Source: Acidimicrobiia bacterium (lineage in GTDB: Bacteria > Actinomycetota > Acidimicrobiia > Spongiisociales > JAHEDJ01). Taken from it: a stretch of DNA of 64,000 nucleotides. Below, one piece after another: positions 20,061 through 43,484 of the stretch. Under the pieces are notes generated by a model. That model was given only the letters and a program-made list of their open reading frames with translations, was not told the DNA's origin and ran no database searches. The stretch is from NCBI GenBank assembly GCA_029210695.1, contig JARGFH010000006.1, positions 29,005 through 93,004 on the forward strand, given 5' to 3'. The position numbers and the translations under genes are program-made. The number at the start of each line of letters is the position of its first letter. Position 1 is the first letter of the stretch.

Positions 20061-20303
20061 CTACCGACGATCACCGACATGCGTTCGGGTGCGAGTCCGA
20101 TCCGAGCTCCTTCGTACCTCGGCGACACGAACCCGGTCTCGGATCCATTGTTCGACATCAGTCCACCGGTAGCGGACGTGCTTGCCCACCCGAAAGCCGA
20201 CGGGTCCCTCTCCCCGGTACCGCCACGCGTACAGCGTCTTGATCGGGACGTCGAGGAAGGCGGCGAGATCCTCAGCCGTAAGAAGGCGGTCGTCTTCGTT
20301 CAT
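20061..20303 (-). CDS. xis: excisionase/Xis-family HTH DNA-binding protein
   Basis: 80 aa. 'LLTAEDLAAFLDVPIKTLYAWRYRGEGPVGFRVGKHVRYRWTDVEQWI' is the classic Xis/MerR-like HTH. It lies immediately upstream of the integrase. Confidence 0.7.
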   Translation of the reverse strand: MNEDDRLLTAEDLAAFLDVPIKTLYAWRYRGEGPVGFRVGKHVRYRWTDVEQWIRDRVRVAEVRRSSDRTRTRTHVGDRR

Positions 20304-25366: not shown

Positions 25367-26223
25367 ATCTCCTCGTCGCCGCAGCCACCGGTGGTCTCAT
25401 CGGGTTCGGACTGTGGTTGGGCGTCACCGCGGTGAGAGGAATCAAGGTGGTACCCGATGCCCGCCGGCTGGTACCTGCGGCGGTACGGGCGGAACGGGCC
25501 ACCGCTTGGCTCGCCGGAGCACTGCTCACGGGCATCATCGTGGGACTGGTCACCGGGTGGCCAGTCGCGGGCATCGGCACCACCCTCGGCGTGCTGGCGG
25601 GACCTGCCGCTATGGGTGGCACCGCTCGGCGTGCACAGGAGACGGCTACCGCCGACGCCATCGCCACCTGGGCAGACATGATCCGCGACACCATGGCCGG
25701 AGCGTCGGGGTTGGAGGAATCACTCATCCAGACCGCCGCCGTCGCGCCAACCGCCATCCGAAGGCAGTTGCAGGCGTTCGCTCACCGGCTGCGCCATCAG
25801 CCCCTCGAAGCCGCCCTCGACGGTCTCGCCAATGATCTCAACCATTCATCCGCCGACCTGATCGTCGCTGCCCTGGCCGCTGCCGCCCGTCTCGAGGCCC
25901 GCGACCTCGGTGGGCTCCTCGCCCGTCTGGCCGAGGCCATCCGGGGAGACGTCCGGATGCGCACCCGCATCGAGATCGGCCGCGCCCGGATCAGAACCTC
26001 TGCCCGAATCGCAGTCGCCACGACCACTGCCACGGTCGTCTTCCTATACCTGTTCGCCGGCCACCTGTTGGAGCCCTACGACACCGCCGGCGGCCAAGTC
26101 TGGCTGCTGGTCGTCATGGCTGTGTTCTTCGGTGCTGGGGTGATGCTCCACCACTACAGCCAGCTCGAAGCACCAGAACGCTTCACCCTCCGCCACATCT
26201 CACACAAGGAGGCGCTCCGATGA
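25351..26223 (+). CDS. tadB: TadB-like type II secretion system F-domain membrane protein
   Basis: N-terminal TM helices, a central cytoplasmic T2SSF-like domain and C-terminal TM helices. Coupled to tadA. Confidence 0.75.
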   Translation: MAANMNLLVAAATGGLIGFGLWLGVTAVRGIKVVPDARRLVPAAVRAERATAWLAGALLTGIIVGLVTGWPVAGIGTTLGVLAGPAAMGGTARRAQETATADAIATWADMIRDTMAGASGLEESLIQTAAVAPTAIRRQLQAFAHRLRHQPLEAALDGLANDLNHSSADLIVAALAAAARLEARDLGGLLARLAEAIRGDVRMRTRIEIGRARIRTSARIAVATTTATVVFLYLFAGHLLEPYDTAGGQVWLLVVMAVFFGAGVMLHHYSQLEAPERFTLRHISHKEALR

Positions 26224-27134
26224 CGGTACTGGCGGTCATGGCCGCGGGTGGGGGGATCGGGCTCGGTGTCTTCTTGGCCGCCAGGGCGATGTTCCCTCGA
26301 CCGGTGCCACTCCAGAAGGCACTGGCGGATCTGGGGCGTCCCCGCCGGACACCCATCCAGGCCCACTCGGGGTCGGTGGCAGGGATGACCGGGCGGGCCG
26401 GCCAGATGGCTGTCCGGGTCATGGAAGCCACTGGACTGGTGGACCTGGGACACCTCGACCAGCGGCTGCGGGCAGTGGGCAAACCAATCGAAGCCCACGC
26501 CTACGAAAAGTTGGTGGGCGGACTCGCCGGACTGTTCCTCCCCCTCGGCTTCGCCACGGTGTTGGCCGTCGGGGGCGTATCGATGTCACCTGGGTGGGTA
26601 GCGGCCCTCGCCGTCGGGTTCGGTGTCGGCGGGTTCATGTGGCCAGACCTCGGATTGTCGGAGCGGATCGAACGTCGCCGGCGGGACTTCCGCCACTCCC
26701 TCTCCGCCTATCTCGATCTGGTCACCATCATCCTGGCCGGCGGAGGGGGGCTCGAAACCGCACTCCAGACCTCCGCCGACCTGGGCGAGGGGTGGGCATT
26801 CACCGAGATCCGGGCCGCCCTCCGCAAAGCGCAGGTCACCAACCGCACCCCATGGGACGTCTTCGACGAACTCGGTCAAGAGCTCGGCATCGACGAACTC
26901 CGCGAACTCGCCGCATCGGCTCATTTGGCTGGCGACCAGGGGGCGCGCATTCGGGCGTCCCTCGCCGCCAAAGCCGACTCCATGCGTGCAGCCCAGACCG
27001 CCGCTATCGAAGCCCAAGCCGAAGCCGCCACCGAGAAGATGCTCCTGCCGGTGGTGACCCTCGTCGTCGGGATGATCCTCTTCATCGGCTTCGGAGTCGT
27101 CCAAGCGATCTCCACGCCGGGGACGGTCCCATGA
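26220..27134 (+). CDS. tadC: TadC-like type II secretion system F-domain membrane protein
   Basis: Second T2SSF paralogue with TM helices at both ends. Stops and starts overlap. Confidence 0.75.
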   Translation: MTVLAVMAAGGGIGLGVFLAARAMFPRPVPLQKALADLGRPRRTPIQAHSGSVAGMTGRAGQMAVRVMEATGLVDLGHLDQRLRAVGKPIEAHAYEKLVGGLAGLFLPLGFATVLAVGGVSMSPGWVAALAVGFGVGGFMWPDLGLSERIERRRRDFRHSLSAYLDLVTIILAGGGGLETALQTSADLGEGWAFTEIRAALRKAQVTNRTPWDVFDELGQELGIDELRELAASAHLAGDQGARIRASLAAKADSMRAAQTAAIEAQAEAATEKMLLPVVTLVVGMILFIGFGVVQAISTPGTVP

Positions 27135-27183
27135 CACCACCGAAAGGAAACATCAAGCGTCTACAACACCGCACGATCCGCTA

Positions 27184-27414
27184 TTGGAAGGAGCGACTGA
27201 TATGACCGCCTACATCGAGTACACCCGCCTCCTCATCGAAGTCACCCTGGCTTCGGTCGGAGTCCGCCTCCGAGACGAGAAGGGAGCAATGTCGACCGAG
27301 GCAGCCGTCCTCACCGGCGTGCTCGTCGCCGTCGCCGTCGCCGCCGGGGTGATACTCATCGCCAAGATGCGATCCAACGCCGAAGCGATCCCCGACAACG
27401 TGCCCGCCCCCTGA
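27184..27414 (+). CDS. flp: Flp/Fap-family prepilin
   Basis: '...KG|AMSTEAAVLTGVLVAVAVAAGVILIA': Gly cleavage site, Glu at +5 and a hydrophobic stretch, as in Flp pilins. Confidence 0.55.
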   Translation: MEGATDMTAYIEYTRLLIEVTLASVGVRLRDEKGAMSTEAAVLTGVLVAVAVAAGVILIAKMRSNAEAIPDNVPAP

Positions 27415-27434
27415 TCGAGCCGAAGGCGCAGGTC

Positions 27435-27830
27435 GTGGTAACGATGACGAGGAGACGAACAGGCGAGGAGGGCCTCACCTCCACCGAACTGGCCGTGGTC
27501 ATGCCGGTGCTCATCGCGCTCGTGTTGGTCCCGTTTCAGATCGCGCTGTGGTGGCACGCCCATCAGGTCGCCGACGGCGCAGCTCGCGAAGCCGTCGACG
27601 CCGCCCAGGTCGTCACCGCCACCGACGGCGACGGGATCCGAGCGGCCGAATGGTTCCTCGACGCTGCTGGCAACCTCACCGACCCCCAGGTGACCGTCAC
27701 CCGCACCGCCGAGACCGTCACTGTCGAGATCACCGGACGGGCACCTCGGCTCATCCCCGGATTCGACTGGAGCGTGGCGGTTCGGGCGTCTGGTCCGGTG
27801 GAACGGTTCGTACCGGAGCCGGACCGATGA
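27435..27830 (+). CDS. TadE-like pseudopilin
   Basis: 'EGLTSTELAVVMPVLIALVLVPFQIALWW' is the TadE N-terminal motif. Confidence 0.65.
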   Translation: MVTMTRRRTGEEGLTSTELAVVMPVLIALVLVPFQIALWWHAHQVADGAAREAVDAAQVVTATDGDGIRAAEWFLDAAGNLTDPQVTVTRTAETVTVEITGRAPRLIPGFDWSVAVRASGPVERFVPEPDR

Positions 27831-28255
27831 TGCGGATTCGCGACGAACACGGGGCAGTCTCCACCGAATTGGCGGTGCTCACGCCGCTGCTGATCGGGTT
27901 CATGCTCTTGGTCGTGTTCGCGGGTCGGGTCGCCCAAGCAGAAGGCGACGTCGCCCACGCCGCCCACGAGGCGGCCCGAGCCGCCTCCCTCACCGCCACC
28001 CCGTCAGCAGCGGTGGAAGCCGCCCAGGCGACAGCCTTCGCCAACATCACCGAAGGTGGAGTGGCGTGCCGGACCCTCGACGTGTCCGTCGACACAACCA
28101 ACTTCGCAGCGGGAGGCCAGGTCGCCGTTGCCGTCACCTGTCAGGCGGCATTCGGTGATATCGCCATGCTGGCCGTTCCCGGAAGCCGTACCTTCACCGC
28201 CAACGCCATCGAGGTGGTCGACACCTACCGAGCAAACCCCCGGAGCGTCCCATGA
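27827..28255 (+). CDS. TadE/TadF-like pseudopilin
   Basis: 'EHGAVSTELAVLTPLLIGFMLLVVFAG'. ATGA overlap with the preceding gene. Confidence 0.65.
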   Translation: MMRIRDEHGAVSTELAVLTPLLIGFMLLVVFAGRVAQAEGDVAHAAHEAARAASLTATPSAAVEAAQATAFANITEGGVACRTLDVSVDTTNFAAGGQVAVAVTCQAAFGDIAMLAVPGSRTFTANAIEVVDTYRANPRSVP

Positions 28256-28641
28256 ACGAGCGTGGGGCCGTCTCCACGTTCCTTGCGGTCATCGCTCTTG
28301 CCCTGCTGATGGCAGCGGGGCTGGCAATCGACGGTGGCCGGAAAGTCAACGCCCTCAGGGAGGCGAGCCACTTGGCTGACAACGCCGCCCGGGCCGGCGC
28401 CCAAGCCGTCGACCTCGACGCCCTCCGCACCACCGGTGACCTTATGGTTGTTCCCGCCGGCGCTGTCGACCGGGTGGACCAGTACCTGACGGCCCTGGGG
28501 TATGCCGCCGCTGAGGTGGCCGTGATTGGTGACAGCGTCACCGTCACCGTCAGTCTCACCGTGGACCCCGTCCTCTTGCCCACCGGGCAGATGACCGTCT
28601 CCGCCACCGAAACTGCCACAGCAATCACCGAGGAGCCATGA
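28252..28641 (+). CDS. TadG/TadE-like pseudopilin
   Basis: 'ERGAVSTFLAVIALALLMAAGLAIDGGR'. Confidence 0.6.
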   Translation: MNERGAVSTFLAVIALALLMAAGLAIDGGRKVNALREASHLADNAARAGAQAVDLDALRTTGDLMVVPAGAVDRVDQYLTALGYAAAEVAVIGDSVTVTVSLTVDPVLLPTGQMTVSATETATAITEEP

Positions 28642-31600
28642 TGCGACACCTGAACAGCATGATCCGTGGCCTCGTAGCCCTCATCGTCGTTCTTGGATTC
28701 GTGATTGGGGTTCCGGCCGGTCTGATTGCCTACGTGGGGTGGCCGCTGCCTGACAGCCTTCCCACACTCGACCAGATCCAGCTCGGTTTCAGGAGCGGCA
28801 TCGACCCCCAACTCCTCATCAGCGTTCTGGCGGCGATCGTCTGGATCGTCTGGGCGCAACTCCTCATCGCACTGACAGCTGAAGTCGTCGCTGCTGCGCG
28901 AGGCAGAGCCGCCCGCCGCTTGCCCTTCATTCCGGGGCTACAACCGGCCGTCGCTCAACTTGTCGCCGCCATCACCCTCGCCACCGCCACCCTCGGTCCG
29001 CTCCACGCGGTACCAGCCACAGCAGCACCCCTCCCCATCGAAATGTCCGTGGCGTCGAGCTACCCGGTGGTCCGCATCGGCCAAGAACCAGCGACGCCCC
29101 GGTGGGCGAAGGCCGACTCCCAGCAGCAGACCGAAACCGAATTGCCGCGGTACCTGGTGACGCGACACGACACCCTCTGGCACATAGCCGAGTCGACCCT
29201 CGGCGACGGGCGCCGCTGGGCCGAGGTCCGGACCTTGAACGCTGGACGGGACATGCGTGACGGCCACCGCTTCACCGAGACAACCGAACGGCTTCACACG
29301 GGGTGGGAACTCATCCTCCCAGCGGATGCCACCACAGCGGCCACTGAGCCTCCCCCGCCAACAGCGGACGAGGTGACCGTGGTGGCGGGGGACAACTTCT
29401 GGACCATCGCCGAGACAACCCTCGCCGGCGCCTGGGGACGACCACCATCGAACGCGGAGACGGCCGAGTATTGGCGGACTCTCATCGACGCCAACCGCGA
29501 TCGGCTGGCGCCGCCGTACGACCCCGATCTCATCTACCCCGACCAACAATTCGAGCTGCCCCCAATCCCGGCCGACCCCAAGACACAGGCCGTCGCGCCG
29601 ATCCCCGATCACATCCCCTCGTCCGCCGATGGGGTCGTCGTCGAAGAGGGAGACAGCTTCTGGAGTATCGCTCAACAGGCCCTTACCAACGCCTGGGATC
29701 GAACCCCCAGCTCCGCCGAGACGACCAGCTATTGGCGTCGGATGGTCGATCTCAACCGGGACCGGCTGTCGCCACCACACGACCCCAACCTCATCTATCC
29801 CGGCCAGGTATTCCAGCTACCGGCCATACCCGAGTACCAACAAGCGCAGACCGAACCTGACACCGAACTCGATACGGCCTCCCCGCCGGAGACGCCACCA
29901 ACAGCCCGGGAGGAGACCGGCACCACACCGGATAACCCCACCTCTGACCTGCCACCCGCCACCACCCCGCTCCCCCCGAAGACAGACGAGCCGATCCCCA
30001 CCGATGCGACCGGAACCACATACGAGGCGCCGGCGTCTGCAGACCCAGCAGACGACACAGATGAACCTGACAGCGTCGACGACGGGAGCATTGCGGGGGA
30101 GCTGTTTCCCATGGCCAGCCGCCTGGCCGGCCTCGGGATCCTCGCGGCCGGTCTCGCCACCCTCCTCCGGCGCTTGCGTAACGCCCAACTCCGGCACCGC
30201 CGACCTGGCACCGTCCCCACCGCCCCACCACCTGACACGGCCAAGGTCGAATCGACGATCCGCAGCGCCGCCGCGCCCACCGCCACCGAGTTCATCGACC
30301 TCGCCCTGCGCTCCATGGCCCGTGACGTGACCGAATCCCACATCCCGCCGCCTCAGGTCGTGGGTGTCCACCTCACCGCCGACACCCTCCGGGTGCTGCT
30401 GTGGGCACCACACAAGGATCCGCCAGCTGGATGGGCCGCCGACGACGGTGGTCGTAGCTGGACCATCCCCACCGTCACCGACATCGATCGGCTCCGCACC
30501 GGATCCCGGGGAGTTCCCGCCCCCTACCCGGCCCTCGTTACTGCCGGGCACGGAGACCACGCCCAGCTCCTCTTGGACCTTGAGTACCTCGGAGCGACCC
30601 AAGTCACTGGAGAACCCACCGATGTGGCCGCCACCTGTTACACGATGGCCACCGAACTCGCCGCCACACCGCTCGCCGACGACCTTCAGATCATCTGCAT
30701 CGGCTTCGGAGACGAAATCGCCGACCTTGAACGCGTGACCGTCGTCGACCACCTCACCGAGGTGCTCCCAGCTCTGGAAGCCAAGGCGACAGCGGTCACT
30801 CGACTCGAATCCCAAGCACCGCTGGCCGGTCGGCTTTCCCCGGGTGCCGGGGACACCTGGAACCCGATCATCATCCTTGACCCGGCCACAGATCCCCCGG
30901 AGGAGGCACGCCAACTTCTCACCCTTGCCCACTCCGGTCGAGGAGTGGCAGCGGTTGTCGGCTACCCCACCGGAGACCGGTGGCGACTCCACATCAAGAA
31001 CGACACCGTACGGATCGACCCACTCGGCTTCACCTTCGCCCGCCGCAACCTCACACCGGTCGAGCAGGCCACCCTCGGCGACCTGGTCACCGCCGGCAAG
31101 GACCTCGAAGGTCTCCCCGCCGAACTCGCCACCGACCCGCTCCAACACATTGTCACGGACGAAGATCTGGGAGGACGGGCCGAGGTGGCAACGGAACCGG
31201 CGTTGTTCGATGAGGACCATGATATTGCGGTCGACGGCACTCCGATCCCAGTGCCGGAGATGAAGGTGCTAGGCACCCTCCATGTAGACGGGATCGACGG
31301 CCGCTTCCCGCTTCGCAAATGCACCGAACTCGTCGCCTACCTCACCTTCCACCGAGGCGGCGTCGAAGCCGACACCCTGATGGAAGCCCTCTGGCCCGAA
31401 CAGGCTCCGGAGTATCAACGTCTCAACCGCCACACCTCACGGACCCGCACCACCCTCGGCATTGGCCCCGACGGTGAACCCTACGTGGGGTACGTGAGCG
31501 ACGGGATCTACCGGCTCAGTTCCCATCTGCGAAGCGACATCGAACGCTTCACGGGCCACATTCGCCAAGCCGACCAGAATGAAAGAACCAACCAGACCCA

Positions 31601-32006
31601 GCACCTCTACGCCGCCCTCGACCTGGTGGAAGGAACACCGTTCAGCGGAGCCGGCAACGCCTACAACTGGGCCCATACCGACGGGATCATCACCCACGCC
31701 ATCGTCGCCATCGACAACGCTGCCCACCGCCTCGCCCAACACGCCCTCCAGGCCGATGACCCCGACCAAGCGACCTGGGCTGCCCGCAAGGGTCTGATCG
31801 CCACAGGAGCCTGCGAAGAGTGCTACCGCAACCTCATGCGAGCAGCTATCGCCGAAGGTAACCAAGTCGCCTTCGAAGCCACCTACACCGAACTACTCGC
31901 AGTGACCGACGCCGACGACGGACCCGACGGAGCGAGCTTCCTCGACCCGGCGACCATCGCCCTCTACGAACAGCACAATCGCAGCCGCAGACGTCATGCT
32001 GGCTGA
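28638..32006 (+). CDS. large membrane-anchored protein: 3x LysM + Pro/Thr-rich linker + SARP-like winged-helix/BTAD regulator domain
   Basis: Two N-terminal TM helices. Three LysM-like repeats ('YLVTRHDTLWHIAESTLGDGRRW', 'VTVVAGDNFWTIAETTL...RDRL', 'VVEEGDSFWSIAQQAL...RDRL'). A ~300-aa P/T/E-rich low-complexity region. C-terminal 'ELVAYLTFHRGGVEADTLMEALWPE' (OmpR/SARP trans_reg_C-like) followed by a BTAD/TPR-like helical domain. Confidence 0.7.
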   Translation: MMRHLNSMIRGLVALIVVLGFVIGVPAGLIAYVGWPLPDSLPTLDQIQLGFRSGIDPQLLISVLAAIVWIVWAQLLIALTAEVVAAARGRAARRLPFIPGLQPAVAQLVAAITLATATLGPLHAVPATAAPLPIEMSVASSYPVVRIGQEPATPRWAKADSQQQTETELPRYLVTRHDTLWHIAESTLGDGRRWAEVRTLNAGRDMRDGHRFTETTERLHTGWELILPADATTAATEPPPPTADEVTVVAGDNFWTIAETTLAGAWGRPPSNAETAEYWRTLIDANRDRLAPPYDPDLIYPDQQFELPPIPADPKTQAVAPIPDHIPSSADGVVVEEGDSFWSIAQQALTNAWDRTPSSAETTSYWRRMVDLNRDRLSPPHDPNLIYPGQVFQLPAIPEYQQAQTEPDTELDTASPPETPPTAREETGTTPDNPTSDLPPATTPLPPKTDEPIPTDATGTTYEAPASADPADDTDEPDSVDDGSIAGELFPMASRLAGLGILAAGLATLLRRLRNAQLRHRRPGTVPTAPPPDTAKVESTIRSAAAPTATEFIDLALRSMARDVTESHIPPPQVVGVHLTADTLRVLLWAPHKDPPAGWAADDGGRSWTIPTVTDIDRLRTGSRGVPAPYPALVTAGHGDHAQLLLDLEYLGATQVTGEPTDVAATCYTMATELAATPLADDLQIICIGFGDEIADLERVTVVDHLTEVLPALEAKATAVTRLESQAPLAGRLSPGAGDTWNPIIILDPATDPPEEARQLLTLAHSGRGVAAVVGYPTGDRWRLHIKNDTVRIDPLGFTFARRNLTPVEQATLGDLVTAGKDLEGLPAELATDPLQHIVTDEDLGGRAEVATEPALFDEDHDIAVDGTPIPVPEMKVLGTLHVDGIDGRFPLRKCTELVAYLTFHRGGVEADTLMEALWPEQAPEYQRLNRHTSRTRTTLGIGPDGEPYVGYVSDGIYRLSSHLRSDIERFTGHIRQADQNERTNQTQHLYAALDLVEGTPFSGAGNAYNWAHTDGIITHAIVAIDNAAHRLAQHALQADDPDQATWAARKGLIATGACEECYRNLMRAAIAEGNQVAFEATYTELLAVTDADDGPDGASFLDPATIALYEQHNRSRRRHAG

Positions 32007-32062
32007 CTTGCGCACCCATTTCGGATCATGGTCGAGCTACCGGACAGACCCGGACGGCAGCC

Positions 32063-32311
32063 GTGAGTGAGCCCACACTCGAAACTCAAATCCACCGGAT
32101 CCAGATGCAACTCGGGAACTGGCACGACAACCTCGCCACTCGCGTGGCCGGCGAAGCACAAGCGCTTTCTGACGAGATCAGCAAGCTGGCGGACCAGGAC
32201 GACGTCGAAGCAGTTGAGGCTCTGGTCCAGCGAGCACACGACCAGATCATGACCAGCTGCGACCTCCTGCGCGATCTGAGACGTCGACTCCAGGATCTGC
32301 CGAAACCATGA
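32063..32311 (+). CDS. small coiled-coil hypothetical protein
   Basis: 82-aa helical ORF. Its stop overlaps the ATG of a 34-codon fragment. Confidence 0.35.
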   Translation: MSEPTLETQIHRIQMQLGNWHDNLATRVAGEAQALSDEISKLADQDDVEAVEALVQRAHDQIMTSCDLLRDLRRRLQDLPKP

Positions 32312-32412
32312 GCCAGCTCACATTGCATGAGGCAATGGTTGTGATTCTCAGGCGCCACGGAGGCGGGTGGATGAGCCGCGACGATATGGCTCGGGGGATC
32401 GCCCCCGGTTAG
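32308..32412 (+). pseudogene. 34-codon remnant resembling the N-terminal winged helix of Mrr/HARE-HTH proteins
   Basis: 'MSQLTLHEAMVVILRRHGGGWMSRDDMARGIAPG*'. It is too short to be a complete domain protein and ends 19 nt before the convergent DUF4238 gene. Confidence 0.3.
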
Positions 32413-32430
32413 GTGGCGCGCGTTGTGCGC

Positions 32431-33456
32431 CTACAAGTCAGGGGCCTGTGGCCGGGGGGAACTCCACTCATCCGGTATGTCGCGAATCGGCTTCCAAACG
32501 TGCAGCACTTCACCGTCGGTTCTTTCGGTGCCGCTATAGAGCGGCCCAGTGTTGAACCTGATGATCGGTCGCCTCCGAGCGAGCGGTAGGTGCTTGCCTT
32601 CGACGTTCTCTGGATGGAACGCAATGAGGCTTGTGCAGTGTCTTGCGATGTGCTCGTTGACGTTCTTGAGGCGACGAGGGCCCATCGTGCGAACACGCTC
32701 CGGACCTATGAGCCGGAGACTTATGAGACGCGTCCTATCGAGAGGAAGCCATATCTCGTCCGCGTCGTAGATCCCCACTCCCCGATAGGTGTCCTCTGGT
32801 GAGGGCAATGCCCAGATTGTGACTGGTCGGTCAGATGTGATGAGTTCGCCGTGCCGTGCTGCCTCAAGTGACCAGGCTCGCTGTTTGAGATGCTCGGCAA
32901 CCTGGAGGCCGAGATTGAACATCAGGTCGATGCGTAGCTGCGCTGTGTCCTCTCGGGTGGGGAAGTCAGGTTGCATTGCAGAGGCGTTGACGAAGTCACA
33001 GGCACCCTGGACTTCTGTCTCGTGGGGTTCAAATCCGAGCACATTTCGCTCCAGGTAATCTCTCATCGACTCAGGGTCTATTGGAGGATCACCGATCGCT
33101 TCTATGACGTCGTGAGTGAATTCGAAGCTCAAGACGTGATCGGGATCGCGCGCTAGCTGAACTCCCATGTACAGAGCGAGGGTATCCCGTTCGCCCGATC
33201 CGCTCGGCGGGAGGGTCCGCTCCTCATCGATACGGTCTAATACCTCTTTGGCATCCTCTTCCAATGCACCGAGGGTTTGTTCCGCGGTTAGGGGCTGTTG
33301 CGGCACCTTGTAGAGCCCGATCACAGCCATCACGTTGCGAGTGTTGGATAAAAAAGTGCTCCCGTCTCGCGACCTCACCGCCACCTGGTTCCGCTCGTTT
33401 GCGAACCGCTTCAGATATGACTGGGGCACAAAGTGATGGAGCTTCGGTTCACTCAT
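32431..33456 (-). CDS. DUF4238-family protein (defence-island associated)
   Basis: N-terminus 'LHHFVPQSYLKRFANE' is the signature start of DUF4238. Confidence 0.7.
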   Translation of the reverse strand: MSEPKLHHFVPQSYLKRFANERNQVAVRSRDGSTFLSNTRNVMAVIGLYKVPQQPLTAEQTLGALEEDAKEVLDRIDEERTLPPSGSGERDTLALYMGVQLARDPDHVLSFEFTHDVIEAIGDPPIDPESMRDYLERNVLGFEPHETEVQGACDFVNASAMQPDFPTREDTAQLRIDLMFNLGLQVAEHLKQRAWSLEAARHGELITSDRPVTIWALPSPEDTYRGVGIYDADEIWLPLDRTRLISLRLIGPERVRTMGPRRLKNVNEHIARHCTSLIAFHPENVEGKHLPLARRRPIIRFNTGPLYSGTERTDGEVLHVWKPIRDIPDEWSSPRPQAPDL

Positions 33457-33713
33457 GGTGTCGACAGATTCCGCCTACGACCCGTGAGGCTTGAACGGCC
33501 ATGATCACGGGGGGTAACCGCCAGCCTGATAGCGCATATCACCAAATCTCGGAGGGTTCCGCCCATATCTGAACCTCCCTGTCCCCGGGATCGGCACTTC
33601 TTGCTTGGCTGCCCGTATGGGTCGTGCCCAGCTCTTCCCACCACGGTGGCGTACTAGCGGCGCTCCTCTGGCGATGGACGTGCACCGAACGCCGCACCAC
33701 TCAACGACCGAAG

Positions 33714-35036
33714 CTATTTCTGCCGCTCGTCACCCTCGTCAACAAGATAAGTATGAGGTGCGACGACGGCAAGATGCCAACTTCCACCCTCGTCGTTGAG
33801 CGCCAGATTCCCCTCGTTGTCATAGCGGACCCACCGAAGCCGGAGATTCCCCGTGGTGCCGTCGATGGTCGCCTTACCTCTGGCCTCGGCCACGCATGAC
33901 TGCGTGTACTCGACTCGCTCGAGCACTACATCGGTGACTTCGTGCATGTCAAACCATGACTTCGCGTACTCGGCAGCCTGGCCAGCCGACTTATGGCCAA
34001 TGAGCTGAGGAGGCATGAGCGGCACGAGCTTTCCCCACTGCTTCTTCTGCCATGCCTCGAAGAACAGCTTCGATAGAGCGACCACCTCATCACTGTCGAA
34101 AGCTTCCCTCTCACGGCTTATGGTCCAGGGCTCGAACAGTTCTCGCGCCTTCTTCTTGCGGCCGTGCTCTGCGAGCCGGCCGAACGTCTCCCGCAACGTA
34201 GGTGGCGGTGGCTTAGTGTCTTCTGTGGCCTTCTTCGTGGTTGCGATGCTCCAGTCGACGACAGCGAAGAGGAGGTTCCAAGCCTTCGTCGCCACAACGA
34301 TGTTGTTGAAGTTCACGACGGAGCCGTGGACGATGCCGTGGCGGTGAACCTCGAACACCTCCTCATCGATTCGCTTCTTGATGGTCTTCAAGAACGGTTT
34401 CAATGCATTGGTGAGTCCCAAGTGATGGCCGGTCACGCTGTCCCAGGCGACCATCTCGTCGGCATCGCGAGCTGCGAGGCCCTGCCGCTCGCTTGCCTCG
34501 AAGTCGTTGACGAAGCCGTCCATCACTGAGATGAGAAGCAAGGTGCATGCATCGAAGCGCCCGGCGTCGTAGTCCTCCCGAGCCCTCACCAGCAAATGGT
34601 GGCGCTCACTCAGTCCGGGAACACCACGGAGTCTCAGCAGATGCCACTTTGTCGCTTCGGCGTCCCTGTACAACTCAATGAGTCGATGCTCTGCCTCATC
34701 CGGCGTGGAAGTCTCATCGAGGATGGCGTCGACTTCCCTGAGGTTCATCCAGTCGGTGAAGACCCAGTGGCGCGCCCCTAGGCGTTCGTAGAACGCATCG
34801 ACGCGATCGGCCATCTCGTTCATGCGCGTTTCCAGCTCGGCAATCTCGCTGCGCTTCTCGCGCATCACGAAGAATGTCAGGGCCTTGAACGCCTTGAGCT
34901 GCTGTCGCATCTCAACAAACGACGGCAGATCGTGTGCGGAGCGGTATGGGGACGTGCCCGATGAGTCGCTCGTGGTGCTATCCATTCCTGGATTGTATCG
35001 AACTAGTGTTCGGCTGAGCAGCCCCGCCTTCCTCAA
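33714..35036 (-). CDS. hypothetical protein with HEPN-like R-x4-H-G motif (start probably at Met 34985)
   Basis: 'EVHRHGIVHGSVVNFNNIVVATKAWNLLF'. It is divergent from, and shares this motif with, the neighbouring 35043..36188 gene. Confidence 0.5.
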   Translation of the reverse strand: MRKAGLLSRTLVRYNPGMDSTTSDSSGTSPYRSAHDLPSFVEMRQQLKAFKALTFFVMREKRSEIAELETRMNEMADRVDAFYERLGARHWVFTDWMNLREVDAILDETSTPDEAEHRLIELYRDAEATKWHLLRLRGVPGLSERHHLLVRAREDYDAGRFDACTLLLISVMDGFVNDFEASERQGLAARDADEMVAWDSVTGHHLGLTNALKPFLKTIKKRIDEEVFEVHRHGIVHGSVVNFNNIVVATKAWNLLFAVVDWSIATTKKATEDTKPPPPTLRETFGRLAEHGRKKKARELFEPWTISREREAFDSDEVVALSKLFFEAWQKKQWGKLVPLMPPQLIGHKSAGQAAEYAKSWFDMHEVTDVVLERVEYTQSCVAEARGKATIDGTTGNLRLRWVRYDNEGNLALNDEGGSWHLAVVAPHTYLVDEGDERQK

Positions 35037-35042
35037 GGCCGG

Positions 35043-36188
35043 GTGTCGAGCCTAGAAGGTGAGTCGCCTCCGATCCTGGGTAACAGGCAATACCCTGAGA
35101 GCATGATGAGTTTTGAAGGAACCGCCAATGGCCTGCCAGCCAAAGTGACGCTTCAGTCCGGCAAGGTATCCGTTGAGCTCGATGACAAGACTCACGGACC
35201 GAAACCGATAGTTGGCTCTGTCAAGAACCTCGACAAGGGAGCAGCCTGGGCAATCGGGTTGGGGTCGATCCGAGTCCGGTTCGTTGCGAATGACCCCGAA
35301 GCATTCACGCGACAGCTCATCCAGGGATTGATCGGTGCTCAGGAATCTCCAGCCGAGCTCTTCGAAAACATGTATCAGATGGCACCGACCGTTGCTGAAG
35401 GTATAGCGTCGATGAGCCGTCTTCTCGAGAACATCACTCTTACTTCGGAGATGCTGGGCGAAGAGCCGCCTGACTATTCGGACACCAAGAAGAATCTGGA
35501 ACTTCTGGCAAGCCGTCATCGAGAGTTCATGGAGCGATTGGCTCCACTTGGTTGGACCTTCTCGAGAGTCCTCGACCGTGGAGTGCCCGTCCGCTTCTAC
35601 CGAGTTGCCGCCAAGTTCATCGAAGTTGGATCAGACCCCGACGACGTAGACGAGTGGCTGGCTCCGCTTGTCCTCGACAGCTCGGAGCTTGAGAGGGTTG
35701 TTGGGGAGGTCGCCGCTCTCCCGGTTCGAGCCATATGGCAGTGGGCGTTCCTGGCTGGGGAAGCTGCCACTGCAACGAATGCCGGACTATTCGCGGTGGC
35801 CGCCGAAGCTTGGATCACCATTGCGGAAGGGCTTTGGCGTGATCTCCGCACCTGGCTTGGAGGGCAAGGAACGTTCTACCGCAAGGGTGACCTTGTAAAC
35901 CAGACCCTGACAGAACGCCTGACCCAGTCGTGGGAATCACTGGTTGTGGCCCACGACTACATGAGTCGATCAGTCAACCGCACAATGCTGGAACCAATCG
36001 ACCGGGCTCCCACTTCACGGCATGCGTTGTTGCACGGTCGAATAGCGGGCGCCGTCCGGAGTGTCCACGCAGCCAAGGCACTGACGATGATCGATGGAAT
36101 CCTTGAGCAGGCGCAAGAAGCCATCAAACTCGCCGAACCGGCCGAGTTGGAAACGCCACCGTGGATCGACGGAGGGGCGGTCTTGTAA
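35043..36188 (+). CDS. hypothetical protein with HEPN-like R-x4-H-G motif
   Basis: 'PTSRHALLHGRIAGAVRSVHAAKALTMIDGIL'. The start may be the internal Met at 35103. Confidence 0.5.
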   Translation: MSSLEGESPPILGNRQYPESMMSFEGTANGLPAKVTLQSGKVSVELDDKTHGPKPIVGSVKNLDKGAAWAIGLGSIRVRFVANDPEAFTRQLIQGLIGAQESPAELFENMYQMAPTVAEGIASMSRLLENITLTSEMLGEEPPDYSDTKKNLELLASRHREFMERLAPLGWTFSRVLDRGVPVRFYRVAAKFIEVGSDPDDVDEWLAPLVLDSSELERVVGEVAALPVRAIWQWAFLAGEAATATNAGLFAVAAEAWITIAEGLWRDLRTWLGGQGTFYRKGDLVNQTLTERLTQSWESLVVAHDYMSRSVNRTMLEPIDRAPTSRHALLHGRIAGAVRSVHAAKALTMIDGILEQAQEAIKLAEPAELETPPWIDGGAVL

Positions 36189-36293: not shown

Positions 36294-38243
36294 TCAGCTG
36301 AGGCTGCGATATTGGCTTCGCTTCCGCATCTGCCTGCCGACATGTACTTCGTCGGCGAGAGCGAGCTCGACAAGGCTCTCCTCTCGCTGGACGAGCCGGG
36401 CGAGGTGGGCAATGGCGTCGGTTCTGTCATTCGAGTCGGTCAGGCGAACAACAAGCGTGCCAGCCTCGTGCAGGGCCCTTGCGACGGCCTCTGGCTCGTC
36501 CAGGCTGTATCGACTCACGATCCGTTCCAGTAGGTGATGAATCAGTGGGAGGGCGTCAGCGATCGCCGTCGACAGGACACCCGCCTTGCCAGCCTCGACG
36601 AGGCTGGCAGGATCGGAGCCAGTGGGCAGGCTGGCGATTCTCACGTGGGCTCCGTCGGTTGTCACCGTTGGCATGTCAGCGACCCGCTCCGCCACCTGCG
36701 CGCCGGCGCCATCGCCGTCGAATGCGAGAGTGATTGTGGAGGCGATACCTTGAAGCGTGGAGAGGTGATGTTGGGTGACCGCCGTGCCACCAGTTGCCAC
36801 AGCGTGGTTGATGCCAACTTGGTGGGCTGCGATCGCGTCGGTGTATCCCTCGACGATTACGGCATGCCGCTGCTCGGTTATGGCCGGTGCGGCGAGGTGA
36901 AGACCGTAGAGCAGTCTCGACTTCTTGTAGAGGTCGGTCTCGGGGGTGTTCATGTACTTCGGTCCGTCGCCCGCAACAAGCCGACCGGCTAGGCCTCGTG
37001 GATTGCCTTGCTGGTCGAGGATTGGGAAGATCACTCGATTGCGCATCAGGTCGTAGAGCCGTCCCTGGCGGGATCGTCGCACAACACCGGCCTCGACGAG
37101 CAGATCGTCCTTGAAGCCATGTCGGCGGAGGGCGGTCGTCAGCGACTGCCACGAGTCAGGGCCGAATCCCAGCTGCCATCGCTCCACCGCTTCCTCATCA
37201 ATGCCCCGGCTGCGAAGGAAATCGACGGCTGACGCACCAGTCGGCTCCTGAAGTTGCTTTCGGTAGAACACTGTGGCAGCTATCAGGATCTCTTCGAGGT
37301 CCTTCCTGCGGGGTGGTTGCCGGTCTTGCGCTGGCCGGGCGGTCTCGAGATCCCGGACCTCGACCAGCGATCCGTCCCTGGCGGGTTCGCGCTCGAGCTG
37401 GCGTTCCTGTTCGAGCTGGGTGAGAACCTGGCGGGCGCAGCCGATCACCCGGTTGGCTGTGGCGGCCACCTTGGTCACGTCACCGCCTGACCAGGAGGCG
37501 ACGTAGGGGAGGCTGTAGCCGGCGCTGTCGATTCCGAGGGCGGCGCACACCATGTAGGCCACGGATTCGGCTTCCACCTCGACGATCCCGCGACATGACG
37601 GTCTGCCGTCCGAGGTTGGTTCGTGGAGCCGCACGTGGGCAAGCTCATGTACCGCTGTTTTGAATCGCTGCGCTCCGGGAAGGCTGGCACGCACCACCAC
37701 GTCTCGCTGTTGCCAGTCGGTGATGCCGTTGGCTTCGCCGAGTCGTTCGAGATCGGCGACTTGGAGGTCGAATCCGGCCCCGGTGATCAGCCCGCTCACC
37801 TGTTCCCAGTGGGAGGGGAGATCTCCTTCCACCAACGCCACCGGCACCTCTGGGAGTGCTTCGCCCTCGGTCTGGGCGAGGTCGAAGACGTGGACGACCC
37901 GGAACCCAACAACCCGTCGTTCCTCGTCTTCACCGTTTTCGGGGGTGACCTTGCGCACGACGGGGGCGAGGATCTGCAGCCCCTTTTCGCCGCGCCTCAC
38001 ATGCCGGCCGAGTTCCTGCCACGCCCGATAGCCGGCGACCCGGCTCGGGGTGAACCCGCGAGCCAACGACTGTGCCCAGATCAGCTGGGTGTTGGAGAAC
38101 GAGTAGTCGTGGAATCGGGCGGCGACGGCCAGAGCCTTTTGCCAGTCCTCGGAGGTGACGAGCTCCTGGAGCGATGCCTGCAGCTGTTCGTGGAGATGGT
38201 CCACGGCGTCGCTGCGATTGGTCGTCGGTTCGGCGGATTCCAC
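36294..38243 (-). CDS. ArdC-like antirestriction N-domain + HExxH metalloprotease + DnaG-type TOPRIM primase fusion (conjugative primase)
   Basis: ArdC-N/DUF1738 'FHDYSFSNTQLIWAQ...RVAGYRAWQELGRHVRRGEKG', zinc-metalloprotease 'AVHELAHVRLHE', and C-terminal TOPRIM 'AVIVEGYTDAIAAHQVG...ITLAFDGDGAG'. Confidence 0.8.
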   Translation of the reverse strand: MESAEPTTNRSDAVDHLHEQLQASLQELVTSEDWQKALAVAARFHDYSFSNTQLIWAQSLARGFTPSRVAGYRAWQELGRHVRRGEKGLQILAPVVRKVTPENGEDEERRVVGFRVVHVFDLAQTEGEALPEVPVALVEGDLPSHWEQVSGLITGAGFDLQVADLERLGEANGITDWQQRDVVVRASLPGAQRFKTAVHELAHVRLHEPTSDGRPSCRGIVEVEAESVAYMVCAALGIDSAGYSLPYVASWSGGDVTKVAATANRVIGCARQVLTQLEQERQLEREPARDGSLVEVRDLETARPAQDRQPPRRKDLEEILIAATVFYRKQLQEPTGASAVDFLRSRGIDEEAVERWQLGFGPDSWQSLTTALRRHGFKDDLLVEAGVVRRSRQGRLYDLMRNRVIFPILDQQGNPRGLAGRLVAGDGPKYMNTPETDLYKKSRLLYGLHLAAPAITEQRHAVIVEGYTDAIAAHQVGINHAVATGGTAVTQHHLSTLQGIASTITLAFDGDGAGAQVAERVADMPTVTTDGAHVRIASLPTGSDPASLVEAGKAGVLSTAIADALPLIHHLLERIVSRYSLDEPEAVARALHEAGTLVVRLTDSNDRTDAIAHLARLVQREESLVELALADEVHVGRQMRKRSQYRSLS

Positions 38244-38704: not shown

Positions 38705-41700
38705 ATGCTGAGCATCGCCAAGGCCCACAAGGACTACTACCTCCAGAAACTGAGCGAGATCACACCCAGGGAGGACTACTACCTTCGAGGTGGAACCGCC
38801 ACGGGTCGTTGGCACGGCAGCGGCGCCCTCGAACAGGGGCTGAAGGGCACCGTGTCAACGGAGGGCCTGGTGCGCCTCTTCGACGGACAACACCCGATGA
38901 CGGGGGAAAAGCTTGGCCGTCAGCTCCGCAAGGACGGGGTGGCGGCCTGGGATCTGACGTTCTCCGCTGACAAGTCGGTGTCGCTGCTGTGGGCGTTCGG
39001 CGACGACGAGGTCCGCCGCCACGTCGTCGAGGCGTTCGAGGAGTCCACCGCAGAGGCCGTCGCCTACCTCGAGTCGGTGGCGTCGTCGACCCGCGGCGCA
39101 TCCCGAACTCCGGTCGTGGACCGCGAGGGGAAGCCGATCCTCGATGACGATGGGAGACAGCGTCATCGGATCGAGACCTGGCCGATCCGCACCACAGGCT
39201 ACGTCTCGGCATGGTTCACCGAATTCACGAGCCGAGCAGACGATCCCCAACTCCATACTCACGTCGTCGTTGGGAACCGGGTGAAGGGCGTCGACGGGGC
39301 GTGGCGGGCCATCGACGGGCGCCTGTTGTACCGGCACAAGCTGGCCGCTGGCTACCTCCACGAAGCCGAACTGCGTCACCGCCTCACCGACCGACTCGGG
39401 GTCCGCTGGCAGCCGGTCCGCAACGGTGTGGCGGACATCGAGGGCTTCTCCCGGGAACAGATCATGGTCTTCTCGCAAAGACGCCAGGCGATCGAGGAGT
39501 GGCGTAACTCCCACGGATACGCCGACACCGCAGCCGCCAACGAGGTCGCCACGCTGGCGACACGGAGTCCCAAACAGGACCACCCCATCGACAACCTAAT
39601 GCCGGTGTGGCTGGAGCGGGGCGCCGGGATAGGAATCACCCCCGAGACGGTGGCCGCCGTGTTGGATCGCAGCCGGGAGGTCACGGTGCCTGACCCCGAC
39701 CCCATCCACGACCGGATGGCCTCCGCCGGAGGGCTCACCGCCCAGGCATCGACCTTCGGACGAGGTGACGCCATCAAAGCAGCAGCAGAAGCCCTCCCCG
39801 AAGGCGGACGAAGAAGTGACGTCGAAGCCCTCGCCGACACCTTCCTACGTCGCTCGGACGTGGTCCCGATCCTCCCCATCCACCCCACCAGTGACGCACT
39901 TAGCGACCTGCCGATCGAACTCGACCCCGCCGAACTCGCCCGGCTGCTAGAGCTCGTCAACTCGACGAAACCACCAACCATGCGGCGCCGCGACGGCGAC
40001 GTCTTCCCCGGCCTGGTCAACGAACGCCGCTACACAACCACCGAACTTCTCACCATCGAACAGCGGATCATCGACCGCGCCCAGAACGGTATCGCAGCCG
40101 ACCGGTGGACAGCCCGTGAGGAGAAGGTGGAAGCCGCCCTCGCCGCGCACCCGGACCTAACAGGCGGCCAACGGGCGATGGTCCATCAGTTCACCGGGTC
40201 CGGAAACGCCATCGACATCGGCGTGGGGGCAGCCGGAACCGGCAAGACCACCGTCATGGCCATCATCGGGGAACTCGCCACCGAGACCGAAACCCCGGTG
40301 GTTGGAACGGCGTTGGCCGCTCGGGCCGCAGCCGGATTCGAGACCGCCACCGGCATTCCCTCGACCACACTTACCCGCTTCCTGTGGGAGACCAAGGCAG
40401 CCGGTGGCCTCCCTACTGGCGCCATCGTCGTCGTCGACGAGGCAGGCATGGTCGGCAGCCGCCAGCTCGCCGATATGTCTGATCTGGTCGAAGAAGCATC
40501 CGGCAAGCTGATCTTGATAGGAGACCACCATCAGCTCGCCGAGATCGACGCCGGCGGGCTCTTCGCCGGGCTCACAGCTCGCCTTCCCGCGGTCGAATTG
40601 ACCGAGAACGTTCGACAGGACCAGGAGTGGGAACGCTCTGCCCTCGTCGAGCTTCGTCACGGGTCGATCTCACGGGCGGTAGCCATGTACAACCGGCGCG
40701 GGAAGATCAACGTCGCCGCCAGCAACGACGACACCATCACCCAGGCGGTCGACGCCTGGTACCGCGACCTCCAAGAGATCGGCGACCCAGCCCAGGTGCT
40801 GCTCATCGGGCACCGCAACACCACCGTCAACCAGCTCAACCGGCAGGCTCGCGCCCGCATTGCTGAATCCGGATTGCTCCACGGACCGACGGTGAGCACT
40901 GGCGATCGCATCCTCCAGGCCGGAGACAGAGCCGTGTGTCTCAAGAATCGGACCAGGCTCGGGGTGCTCAACGGCGACCTGGGCACCGTCACGGCAGTCG
41001 ACACCGAATGGCGAACCGTCACACTCCGGCTCGACCGCAACGACAACACCGTGACCGTTCCGCATTGGTACCTCGACGACGGCCACCTCGACTGGGGCTA
41101 CGCCCTGACCGGACACAAGGCCCAAGGCGCAACCGCACGCCGCGCCCACACGGTCGCGGGCGACGGCGTCGACCGGGAATGGATCTACGTCACCCTGAGC
41201 CGAGGCCGCGAAGCCAACACGATCTACCTGACCAACCCGGAACTTGACGACGGAGAGTGCTTGCATCTAGCGCGCCAGCCCCCCGACCGACTCCCATCCC
41301 TCATCGCCGCCCTCGGCCGCAGCGCCGCAGAGCCAGCGGCGATCGACACCGGACGTGGGCCCCGCATACTCACCGACGAGCAGTTGAACCAGCGGTTGGC
41401 CGACCCGGAGTGGCATCTACGGGTATCGAGAGGGCCGTGGCTCGCGGACGACATCGGTGACAGCGCTGAACCGCTTGTTGAGTATCTGGCAACGCACAGA
41501 GAGGCCCGTGCTCGTCATCGTGACCACCTTGCAGCCATTGCATACGAGCCCCCTCAATGGATCGTCAATGCAATCGGAGAGCGGCCCACGGAACCCGATC
41601 GTCGCGTCACCTGGGATCTGATCGTCGACCACGCAGTCAGCTACCGCGCTGAGCACGCCGTGGCAGACCAGGCTTCTGGGCTTCTCGGTCCACAGCCTGA

Positions 41701-41824
41701 GGGTGATTCGATAGCCGAGCGCGTCGCCTGGGCGGTCGCCAATACGAACGTCGAGCGTGGCGTAAGTCGTCTCAACCTCGAGGGCAGAAACCTGGAGTCA
41801 GATGGAGGCAGGTCGCTCTGTTGA
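38705..41824 (+). CDS. traA: MobF-family conjugative relaxase/helicase (TrwC/TraA-like)
   Basis: N-terminal TrwC relaxase domain ('MLSIAKAHKDYYL...YYLRGG...GRWHGSGA', 'HTHVVVGNRV' His triad) and C-terminal RecD-like helicase with Walker A 'GVGAAGTGKTTV' and 'VVVDEAGMV'. Confidence 0.9.
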   Translation: MLSIAKAHKDYYLQKLSEITPREDYYLRGGTATGRWHGSGALEQGLKGTVSTEGLVRLFDGQHPMTGEKLGRQLRKDGVAAWDLTFSADKSVSLLWAFGDDEVRRHVVEAFEESTAEAVAYLESVASSTRGASRTPVVDREGKPILDDDGRQRHRIETWPIRTTGYVSAWFTEFTSRADDPQLHTHVVVGNRVKGVDGAWRAIDGRLLYRHKLAAGYLHEAELRHRLTDRLGVRWQPVRNGVADIEGFSREQIMVFSQRRQAIEEWRNSHGYADTAAANEVATLATRSPKQDHPIDNLMPVWLERGAGIGITPETVAAVLDRSREVTVPDPDPIHDRMASAGGLTAQASTFGRGDAIKAAAEALPEGGRRSDVEALADTFLRRSDVVPILPIHPTSDALSDLPIELDPAELARLLELVNSTKPPTMRRRDGDVFPGLVNERRYTTTELLTIEQRIIDRAQNGIAADRWTAREEKVEAALAAHPDLTGGQRAMVHQFTGSGNAIDIGVGAAGTGKTTVMAIIGELATETETPVVGTALAARAAAGFETATGIPSTTLTRFLWETKAAGGLPTGAIVVVDEAGMVGSRQLADMSDLVEEASGKLILIGDHHQLAEIDAGGLFAGLTARLPAVELTENVRQDQEWERSALVELRHGSISRAVAMYNRRGKINVAASNDDTITQAVDAWYRDLQEIGDPAQVLLIGHRNTTVNQLNRQARARIAESGLLHGPTVSTGDRILQAGDRAVCLKNRTRLGVLNGDLGTVTAVDTEWRTVTLRLDRNDNTVTVPHWYLDDGHLDWGYALTGHKAQGATARRAHTVAGDGVDREWIYVTLSRGREANTIYLTNPELDDGECLHLARQPPDRLPSLIAALGRSAAEPAAIDTGRGPRILTDEQLNQRLADPEWHLRVSRGPWLADDIGDSAEPLVEYLATHREARARHRDHLAAIAYEPPQWIVNAIGERPTEPDRRVTWDLIVDHAVSYRAEHAVADQASGLLGPQPEGDSIAERVAWAVANTNVERGVSRLNLEGRNLESDGGRSLC

Positions 41825-42216: not shown

Positions 42217-42927
42217 ATGGTTGCCAGCCTGCAGCACTTGCTCAGGGTTGTTCCGGCCGACGCGCCACCCAGCGGGTATCGATCTGCCGTCATGGAAGAG
42301 AACGTCCTTGGGAAGGAGACCATGCGCGCTCGCGAGTGGGCTTTTCGGCAGCTCCGTCGCTTCTACGGTCTAGACCCCGACGTCTTGCTGTTTCGAGGGC
42401 TTCGCGATTTGTGGCCGGACGACCCGGTCGGTCAGCCTCTCCTCGCCATGTTGTGTGCCCTCGCTAGGGACGCTGTCCTGCGCTCAACGGCCGGGGTCAT
42501 CCTGAATTCAGAACCGGGTGTGCCCGTTGGCCCTACGGACTTTCGCTCGACCATTGAGGAGGCCTTCCCTGGCGTGTATGGCGACAAGACCCTTCGCACT
42601 GCTGCTGGGAACGTTGCATCTTCCTGGTATCAGGCTGGCCACTTGGACAAAGAGACACGGACGGAGAAGGTCCGAAGTCGGGCGACGGCTACACCGGCCG
42701 ACCTTGCCTATGGCCTACTACTCGGACACATAGAAGGTCACAGAGGCCAGGCATTGTTCGACACTCTTTGGACAAGGGTTCTCGACCAGCCGGCATCACG
42801 CCTTACCGACCTTGCGGTTACCGCGTCGCAGCGAGGTCTGATCGAGTTCAAGAACGCGGGTGGCATCGTTGACGTCGGCTTCACCGTGCTATTGCGTCCC
42901 TTTGATGACGAGGCTTCGTCGCTGTGA
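42217..42927 (+). CDS. brxA: BrxA-like (DUF1819) BREX protein; start uncertain (ORF opens at 42106)
   Basis: Its position is immediately upstream of, and overlapping, brxB. The ~230-aa helical protein is consistent with DUF1819, but this is a sequence-context call. Confidence 0.45.
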   Translation: MVASLQHLLRVVPADAPPSGYRSAVMEENVLGKETMRAREWAFRQLRRFYGLDPDVLLFRGLRDLWPDDPVGQPLLAMLCALARDAVLRSTAGVILNSEPGVPVGPTDFRSTIEEAFPGVYGDKTLRTAAGNVASSWYQAGHLDKETRTEKVRSRATATPADLAYGLLLGHIEGHRGQALFDTLWTRVLDQPASRLTDLAVTASQRGLIEFKNAGGIVDVGFTVLLRPFDDEASSL

Positions 42928-43484
42928 GTTACGTCGACCAACTCGTCGAGGCCTACCGGAAGTTCGTGGCTCTCCCATGGCAGGAGAACCTGGCTCCTCC
43001 GCAACGGGTGTGGATGACCGTGTACCCACCTGAGCACGAGCGCCGACTACGACTCCATCTGCCCGCGTTCAAGGCGGCGACCACCGAACACAACCGAGCC
43101 TGGGCGCTGATCGACATCACCATCTCCTTCGAGCAGTGGATGGCCGACCACGAGTACCGAGACGCCTACTTCGAGGATCCCGAACTCTTGGAGACGGCAC
43201 TCCCTGCCTTCTTCGACCATCTTGTGGAGCATGTGCGAGCGCGTCTTGCTGAGCAACCAGATCCGAAGGGAGTTGTGGCAGTTCTCGGTGCGGGCACGCT
43301 GTTCGGTTTGGGTGACGCGGTCAAGGTGTCCGCTCTGCTCAACGCGGTCAATGATGCGGTCGCCGGCCGATTGTTGATCTTCTTTCCGGGTGAGCACGAG
43401 GGCAACAGCTATCGCCTCCTCGACGCCCGAGATGGATGGAACTACCTGGCGACGCCGATCACACCAAACGGGAGAAACGGATGA
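42924..43484 (+). CDS. brxB: BrxB-like (DUF1788) BREX protein
   Basis: 186 aa, translationally coupled between brxA and brxC. 'WMTVYPPEHERRLRLHLPAFKAA...' fits the DUF1788 size and pattern. Confidence 0.55.
   Translation: MSYVDQLVEAYRKFVALPWQENLAPPQRVWMTVYPPEHERRLRLHLPAFKAATTEHNRAWALIDITISFEQWMADHEYRDAYFEDPELLETALPAFFDHLVEHVRARLAEQPDPKGVVAVLGAGTLFGLGDAVKVSALLNAVNDAVAGRLLIFFPGEHEGNSYRLLDARDGWNYLATPITPNGRNG

Follow-up and report, generated by a model that had tools for sequence, protein, structure and literature searches.

An unnamed superfamily with an invariant R-x4-H-G motif, represented by two paralogues in an actinobacterial conjugative element: candidate single-gene HEPN-like effectors

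Two divergent genes encode distant paralogues

We analyzed a stretch of 64,000 nucleotides (hereafter the window) from the metagenome-assembled genome (MAG) of an Acidimicrobiia bacterium (GCA_029210695.1, contig JARGFH010000006.1, positions 29,005-93,004 of the forward strand). We focused on two adjacent genes, called here A and B, lying within an integrative conjugative element (ICE). An initial annotation had singled them out as a divergent pair with a common R-x4-H-G motif and as a candidate HEPN-like defense module. We find that their products are distant paralogues, with about 19% identity, over a whole helical domain of ~230-270 amino acids that defines a large unnamed superfamily. We give roughly even chances to the reading that A and B are two independent single-gene effectors, each combining a sensor with a HEPN-like domain built on a four-helix core, and both carried as cargo of the ICE.

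Gene A (33714..34985, minus strand) encodes 423 amino acids from the ATG at 34985 (M18), a start supported by NCBI and by the homologues, and its open reading frame (ORF) reaches 35036 (440 amino acids). Gene B (35103..36188, plus strand) encodes 361 amino acids from its supported start, in an ORF that opens at 35043 (381 amino acids). The products are 100% identical to the NCBI proteins P1T08_03330, of an Acidimicrobiia MAG, and P1T08_03335, respectively. Both ORFs of the divergent pair were recovered, and so were the two motif-bearing segments described initially: RHGIVHGSVVNFNNIVVATKAW spans amino acids 232-253 of the A ORF (nt 34278-34343) and RHALLHGRIAGAVRSVHAAKAL amino acids 326-347 of the B ORF (nt 36018-36083). 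These alignable segments are present in both proteins, as had been noted, but that of A is not C-terminal, being in the middle of the protein at the end of its N-terminal domain. Similarly, the genes are indeed divergent, but "back to back" was a loose wording for a head-to-head arrangement around a 117-bp spacer (34986..35102). Scanning this spacer revealed neither a sigma-70-type promoter nor a terminator or an inverted repeat, a result that is uninformative for a high-GC actinobacterium.

The protein encoded by A starts with an all-alpha domain of ~250 amino acids carrying the HEPN-like motif, which a Pro-rich linker connects to a C-terminal domain of NTF2-like type (33741..34133, minus strand, approximate boundaries). 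The helical domain (34191..34964, minus strand; P0001 residues 8-265) is the unit common to B and to the whole superfamily. Its motif, R-H-G-I-V-H-G (34323..34343, minus strand), contains R215, H220, and G221 in P0001 numbering, which is used throughout. The product of B has an N-terminal region of ~85 amino acids of no assigned fold and then its own copy of the helical domain (35358..36167, plus strand; P0121 about 86-355). This copy scores 313.8 bits with the joint profile of the domain and has the motif R-H-A-L-L-H-G (36018..36038, plus strand).

The motif alone is weak evidence of relatedness, since a bare R-x4-H-G occurs in 7% of the composition-matched shuffles of A and in 3% of those of B. 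The similarity extends well beyond it. BLASTP aligns about 270 residues of the two proteins with an E of 2e-5, and hhalign aligns the two families over 227 columns with an E of 3e-5. A hidden Markov model (HMM) made from A and its homologues only gives B a score of 11.5 bits, whereas the best of 1000 shuffles reaches 3.1, and the one made from the B family only gives A 14.2 bits, with 6.5 for the best of as many shuffles. The matches are collinear, with an upstream F-x-E-R-L-x3-G-W and the R-H-x3-H-G...K both aligned, and because of this we regard A and B as paralogues over the whole domain. The initial description of two otherwise dissimilar proteins was therefore wrong. The idea that a common motif arose by chance in two unrelated hypothetical proteins, for which the frequency of the motif in shuffled sequences is the sole argument, is refuted by these results and by the strong membership of A and B in a single profile-defined family.

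A large family without annotation

A word-indexed search returned more than 401 homologues of A and only 7 of B. The joint profile of the shared domain matches 1127 cluster representatives (clusters at 50% identity) with E<=1e-3, and 664 with E<=1e-10. The hosts are mainly Actinomycetota (Acidimicrobiia, Streptomyces, Nocardia, Rhodococcus, Kocuria, Leucobacter, and others), together with Chloroflexota (Dehalococcoidia). A typical member has 400-430 amino acids and the architecture of A. The accessory domains differ around a constant core: they are NTF2-like and C-terminal in A, N-terminal in B, and of a different C-terminal type in a small third subfamily (C).

A few members depart from these architectures. 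In P0208 and P0247, proteins of about 645 amino acids, the domain is present twice in tandem, R-[H/N]-G-I-L-H-G is kept in both copies, and a single tail of NTF2-like length comes after them. In P0210 the shared domain occurs with an HTH_3 fusion. The N-terminal extensions of P0040 (residues 1-140) and P0210 (residues 1-400) contain additional R-N-x3-H strings (ARNGVVHS, LRNQLVHQ), and may represent further domains of HEPN-like type or upstream genes that became fused.

We agree with the initial annotation that A and B fall in no named family: scans against Pfam, NCBIfam, PADLOC, and PHROGs gave no meaningful match to either protein. Matches to Bud32 and endosialidase were dismissed, as they were far below the cut-offs. 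When 10 multidomain relatives and 88 members were scanned with Pfam, only the HTH_3 fusion and weak MecA_N matches for the NTF2 part emerged. Six plasmids carry a member of the family, and the copies in RefSeq plasmids are all annotated as hypothetical proteins. Searches of phage GenBank and IMG/VR revealed no member.

We studied conservation in 93 diverse domains, no two of which share 62% identity or more. In this set, W74, G157, R215, H220, G221, and K234 are invariant, and F65, R128, A135, D156, G190, L191, N228, A232, and W245 are conserved in at least 95% of the domains, with D156, N228, and R128 reaching at least 96%. R215, H220, and G221 are also invariant in 37 close homologues of A. 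The position after the arginine (216) is occupied by H or N in the 37 close and the 88-93 diverse homologues. The initial annotation had made its proposal depend on the conservation of R-x4-H-G among homologues, and the motif is invariant across both sets. Among the relatives of B, the five full-length ones with an intact C-terminus keep TSR[H/N]xxLHG (R-N in one of them); P0124, the sixth, has a frameshift at the motif. B retains E-G (with E in place of D156), R-H/N, H-G, and the lysine.

Resemblance of the shared domain to HEPN ribonucleases

The closest known kind of protein is that of the ribonucleases (RNases) of the HEPN superfamily, especially its Abi-type families, such as AbiV, RnlA/LsoA, and the HEPN proteins associated with MNT (Anantharaman et al. 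2013, PMC3710099). The published description of HEPN domains places an R-x4-6-H motif where helix 3 ends or in the loop leading to helix 4, and the arginine is typically followed by N, D, or H. Helix 2 has an acidic residue, and helices 2 and 3 can be separated by inserts (PMC3710099). The shared domain has the spacing of this motif, with a polar residue (H or N) behind the invariant arginine. It also has an acidic residue (D156 in 96% of the domains, E in B) upstream of an insert.

To place these residues in a structure, we used an AlphaFold model of the N-terminal domain of A alone, derived from a diverse alignment of 88 sequences. The model (predicted local distance difference test, pLDDT, 96.7; predicted template modeling score, pTM, 0.92) is all-alpha, with eleven helices. 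According to DSSP, the motif corresponds to a short helix (model residues 208-213), and a terminal helix of 29 residues (222-250) comes next. D156-G157 are inside a long helix (137-155), which is separated from the motif by an insert of 50 residues that is partly non-helical. This topology is consistent with the placement of the HEPN motif between helices 3 and 4. The proposed HEPN-like core of A (34215..34610, minus strand; P0001 about 126-257) would thus consist of a helix, a helix with D156-G157, the insert, the short motif helix, and the long terminal helix. The members with two tandem copies, each with its motif, fit the requirement of HEPN active sites for two motifs. Within a single domain, hhalign of the N-terminal half against the C-terminal half revealed no duplication. 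We lean toward the shared ~250-amino-acid domain being a true HEPN homologue with a four-helix core. The initial qualification of the proteins as HEPN-like is moderately supported: the motif is invariant and the H or N after R is typical of HEPN, while no recognized HEPN profile matches them. We also considered the superfamily of the histidine phosphatases ("RHG"), whose R-H-G motif has an invariant catalytic histidine on an alpha/beta fold, and rejected it because many members have N in place of the histidine that follows R, and because the shared domain is all-alpha.

The domain model was compared with solved HEPN-type structures, with one figure for each structure. The similarity is moderate overall and the figures do not tell whether it is the motif-bearing half or the N-terminal half that aligns: they are 6.4 for 1wol (ST0689, an archaeal HEPN homologue) and 1ufb (TT1696 of T. 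thermophilus), 6.2 for 8jbc (Csm6) and 2hsb (a HEPN protein), 5.9 for 4txa (Roquin), 5.7 for 3o10 (the HEPN of sacsin), 5.4 for 4nqf (a HEPN protein), 5.3 for 6y2r (RnlA), 5.1 for 9bj5 (AbiV), and 4.9 for 4qik (Roquin) and 5hy3 (LsoA).

This ambiguity is one of several points that weigh against regarding A and B as solo HEPN-like effectors. Foldseek found no match in the PDB (E>=3). No Pfam HEPN family appears, even weakly (E<=5), among the families listed for the 88 members, and none matches A or B at E<=1. PADLOC-DB v2 also has no match for either protein at E<=1. When the three family profiles were searched against PDB sequences, they retrieved only the NTF2-like N-domain of PBP3 and noise; the shared domain remained unmatched and no HEPN sequence was hit. 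A canonical HEPN is only about half as large as this domain. The genomic contexts add two further points. When we clustered the genes flanking the A homologues, four per side, in a set of 80 genomic loci, we found no conserved partner or antitoxin that could restrain a constitutive RNase, the commonest neighbor cluster being common to only 6 loci. Finally, several A homologues are in ordinary chromosomal surroundings.

Proposed function and alternatives

If A and B are HEPN-like effectors, their core would combine R-[H/N]-x3-H-G with the acidic residue of the helix (D156; E in B) and the lysine. By analogy with characterized HEPN proteins, each protein would dimerize and bring together two R-x4-H motifs in a metal-independent endoribonuclease site, which D156, N228, and K234 may assist. 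The site would stay inactive until the accessory domain senses a trigger or shifts the oligomeric state. Once activated, the RNase would cleave RNA and cause growth arrest, resulting in abortive infection or in addiction to the mobile element. In A, the NTF2-like domain might be the sensor or an oligomerization module. It was assigned to the NTF2-like superfamily (SnoaL, SEC-C/YchJ, CaMKII-hub-like) by fold alone, as its alpha+beta cone matches solved NTF2-like structures (including 4ec6, 3ub1, and 6zgn), and no residues for catalysis or ligand binding were identified in it; B lacks such a domain.

Solo HEPN proteins acting in abortive infection are known, an example discovered in a similar way being HepS, an anticodon nuclease encoded by the Gifsy-1 prophage (PMC13043305), and we count this precedent in favor of A and B acting alone. 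HepS differs from A and B in several respects. It has less than 250 amino acids, consists only of the HEPN domain, and is prophage-borne in Enterobacteria. In contrast, A and B have 360-420 amino acids with accessory domains, and their family is found in ICEs, plasmids, and chromosomes of Actinomycetota and Chloroflexota, with no phage members found. We detected no sequence relationship between HepS and either protein.

A different explanation, which we regard as rather unlikely, is that the shared domain binds ligands or proteins, or is another kind of helical enzyme, and that it has a role in the biology of the mobile element (conjugation, entry exclusion, plasmid maintenance) or in housekeeping. 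The moderate structural similarity to HEPN and the lack of a sequence-profile link are compatible with it. Some HEPN-fold domains are non-catalytic binders, but these usually lack the R-x4-6-H motif (PMC3710099), whereas none of more than 90 diverse members of the family deviates at R, H, or G. The absence of the family from phage collections would suit a role outside defense, and so would the abundance of NTF2-like domains in conjugation proteins (the matches 4ec6, 3ub1, and 6zgn).

The genomic neighborhoods bear on the same question. The 126 immediate neighbors of A homologues are heterogeneous, and many have functions associated with mobile elements or defense. They include integrases and 3 TrwC relaxases, and tblastn places A homologues directly downstream of such relaxases in about five loci; others are on actinobacterial plasmids. 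These associations would fit a function in conjugation, but there is no conserved link to any conjugation gene, and the varied neighborhoods contain many defense genes: SIR2_2/Dsr1, Mrr_cat, ResIII, type IIG restriction-modification, AAA_21/AriA/GajA-like ATPases, ShosA, and the PADLOC candidates PDC-S31 and PDC-S68.

Two other neighbors deserve mention. In a Streptomyces plasmid (NZ_CP107847.1, L091, 1035-7224), the A homologue is about 850 bp downstream of a gene for a polymorphic-toxin-type HINT protein of 1369 amino acids, on the same strand, a single case. The window itself encodes a protein of 832 amino acids (55028-57526, plus strand) with weak PHP, SMC_N, and AAA_21 signatures, whose relatives directly adjoin A homologues in two unrelated loci (L047 and L069).

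We consider it improbable that A and B, possibly with the adjacent DUF4238 gene, make up a multi-gene module, either a HEPN nuclease formed as a heterodimer, with one R-x4-H motif and a separate sensor domain contributed by each paralogue, or a toxin with a paralogous restrainer. Such a module would account for two adjacent and divergent genes with a common 117-bp control region, and the need of HEPN sites for two motifs, together with the existence of tandem two-copy proteins in the family, would be in line with it. The loci tell otherwise. A second copy of the domain within 7 kb of the A homologue was found in 0 of the 80 loci, apart from one frameshifted gene, and tblastn identified a B or a DUF4238 homologue in none of them. 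The co-occurrence of A and B in other genomes, which had been proposed as a check, thus finds no support in these loci. Five contexts of B are informative, and A adjoins B in that of the window only. In L001 the B homologue is beside a different paralogue, of subfamily C and on the same strand, so that a member of the superfamily adjoins B in two of the five contexts, which keeps a small probability of pairing alive. The remaining three lack an adjoining paralogue: the B homologue is downstream of an integrase in the contig of P0126, next to an IS21-like transposase in L088, and next to unrelated genes in L002. Members of subfamily C are also found solo, in an ICE-like region and beside an integrase fragment. 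Moreover, neither A nor B resembles a degenerate regulator, as both have kept the full motif.

The locus L002 also encodes Schlafen/AlbA_2-like and DUF2441 proteins beside the B homologue. The products of its ORFs at 2636-3694 and 4553-5806 (plus strand) and 172-1365 (minus strand) include two uncharacterized R-x4-H proteins (RRSRIVHQG, ARHATSHAVGH), neither of which has a match in Pfam. A Pfam scan of the ORFs of this locus, the N-termini of P0040 and P0210, and the N-terminus of B identified no HEPN family.

The DUF4238 gene resembles A and B in being a single-gene candidate or validated defense cargo, and it adjoins A. Defense against T7 by a DUF4238 protein on its own has been validated experimentally (Rousset et al. 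2022, PMC9122126). The gene has no sequence relation to A or B and, as it is never beside A homologues in the 80 loci, we regard it as an independent neighbor and not as a partner. A conserved module of A, B, and DUF4238 is not supported, and the adjacency is best read as that of independent cargo genes that accumulated in a single variable part of the ICE. The GC content is 0.576-0.602 across the stretch with DUF4238, A, and B (32001-36000), versus 0.63-0.68 in the flanking ICE backbone, which is consistent with separately acquired cargo.

Equally improbable, in our view, is that the shared domain is an altogether new effector spread by actinobacterial ICEs and plasmids. It would be either a composite nuclease, of A with B or A with A, whose halves respond to different sensors and which would be an intermolecular counterpart of the two unequal HEPN domains of Cas13, or a protein with a non-RNase site made of W, D-G, R..H-G, N, and K.

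Should A and B be HEPN-like effectors acting alone, they would represent a sizeable unannotated family of single-gene effectors of this type with swappable sensor domains, comprising more than 1100 clusters in Actinomycetota and Chloroflexota. The defense systems of these two phyla are poorly charted. The family could then provide a new model for defense-finder tools and a compact scaffold, with a sensor and an RNase, to study how solo HEPN toxins are restrained. No new principle would be involved: HEPN proteins that act alone in abortive infection turn up regularly, as do new HEPN families. The novelty would rather be a sizeable unnamed family within the known kind of HEPN-type effectors, and a role of A and B in defense, including against phages, is plausible.

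The conjugative element and its other genes

The ICE spans the wider window and is rich in defense genes. This matches the initial description of a defense-rich element: GmrSD (16747-18906), a tyrosine integrase (18836-20158), Tad/T4SS-like genes, where T4SS stands for type IV secretion system (22582-28255), a TrwC relaxase (38705-41824), BREX genes (BrxB, BrxC, PglX, and a BrxL-kinase fusion; 42924-54913), and a T4 coupling protein (57598-59361). The genes flanking the pair are also those that had been named, a DUF4238 gene and a conjugative primase. The former, the left neighbor of A (32431-33456, minus strand), matches PF14022 with an E of 3e-31 and DUF4238-Pers in PADLOC, and is given as context only. 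To the right of B (36294-38243, minus strand) is a gene for a 649-amino-acid protein that fuses ArdC-N, a signature of M78/IrrE-like metallopeptidases, a DnaG-primase core with Toprim, and a DnaB-binding domain.

A few other proteins of the window caught our attention. The last gene of the Tad/T4SS-like block (28638-32006, plus strand) encodes a protein of 1122 amino acids. It has a membrane segment at its N-terminus, LysM-like repeats, and a long linker rich in Pro and Thr, and its large C-terminal region has no match in Pfam. Between this gene and DUF4238, an ORF for a coiled-coil protein of 82 amino acids (32063-32311, plus strand) has a weak match, below the cut-off, to CTD11 of ABC-3C systems (E of 0.019). 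Finally, a protein of 997 amino acids (51920-54913, plus strand) combines BrxL_N and the Lon-like ATPase of BrxL (E of 4e-119) with a C-terminal Ser/Thr kinase (E of 8e-32). This fusion is in the BREX cluster with BrxB, BrxC, and PglX (42924-50142), and it looks unusual for such a system.

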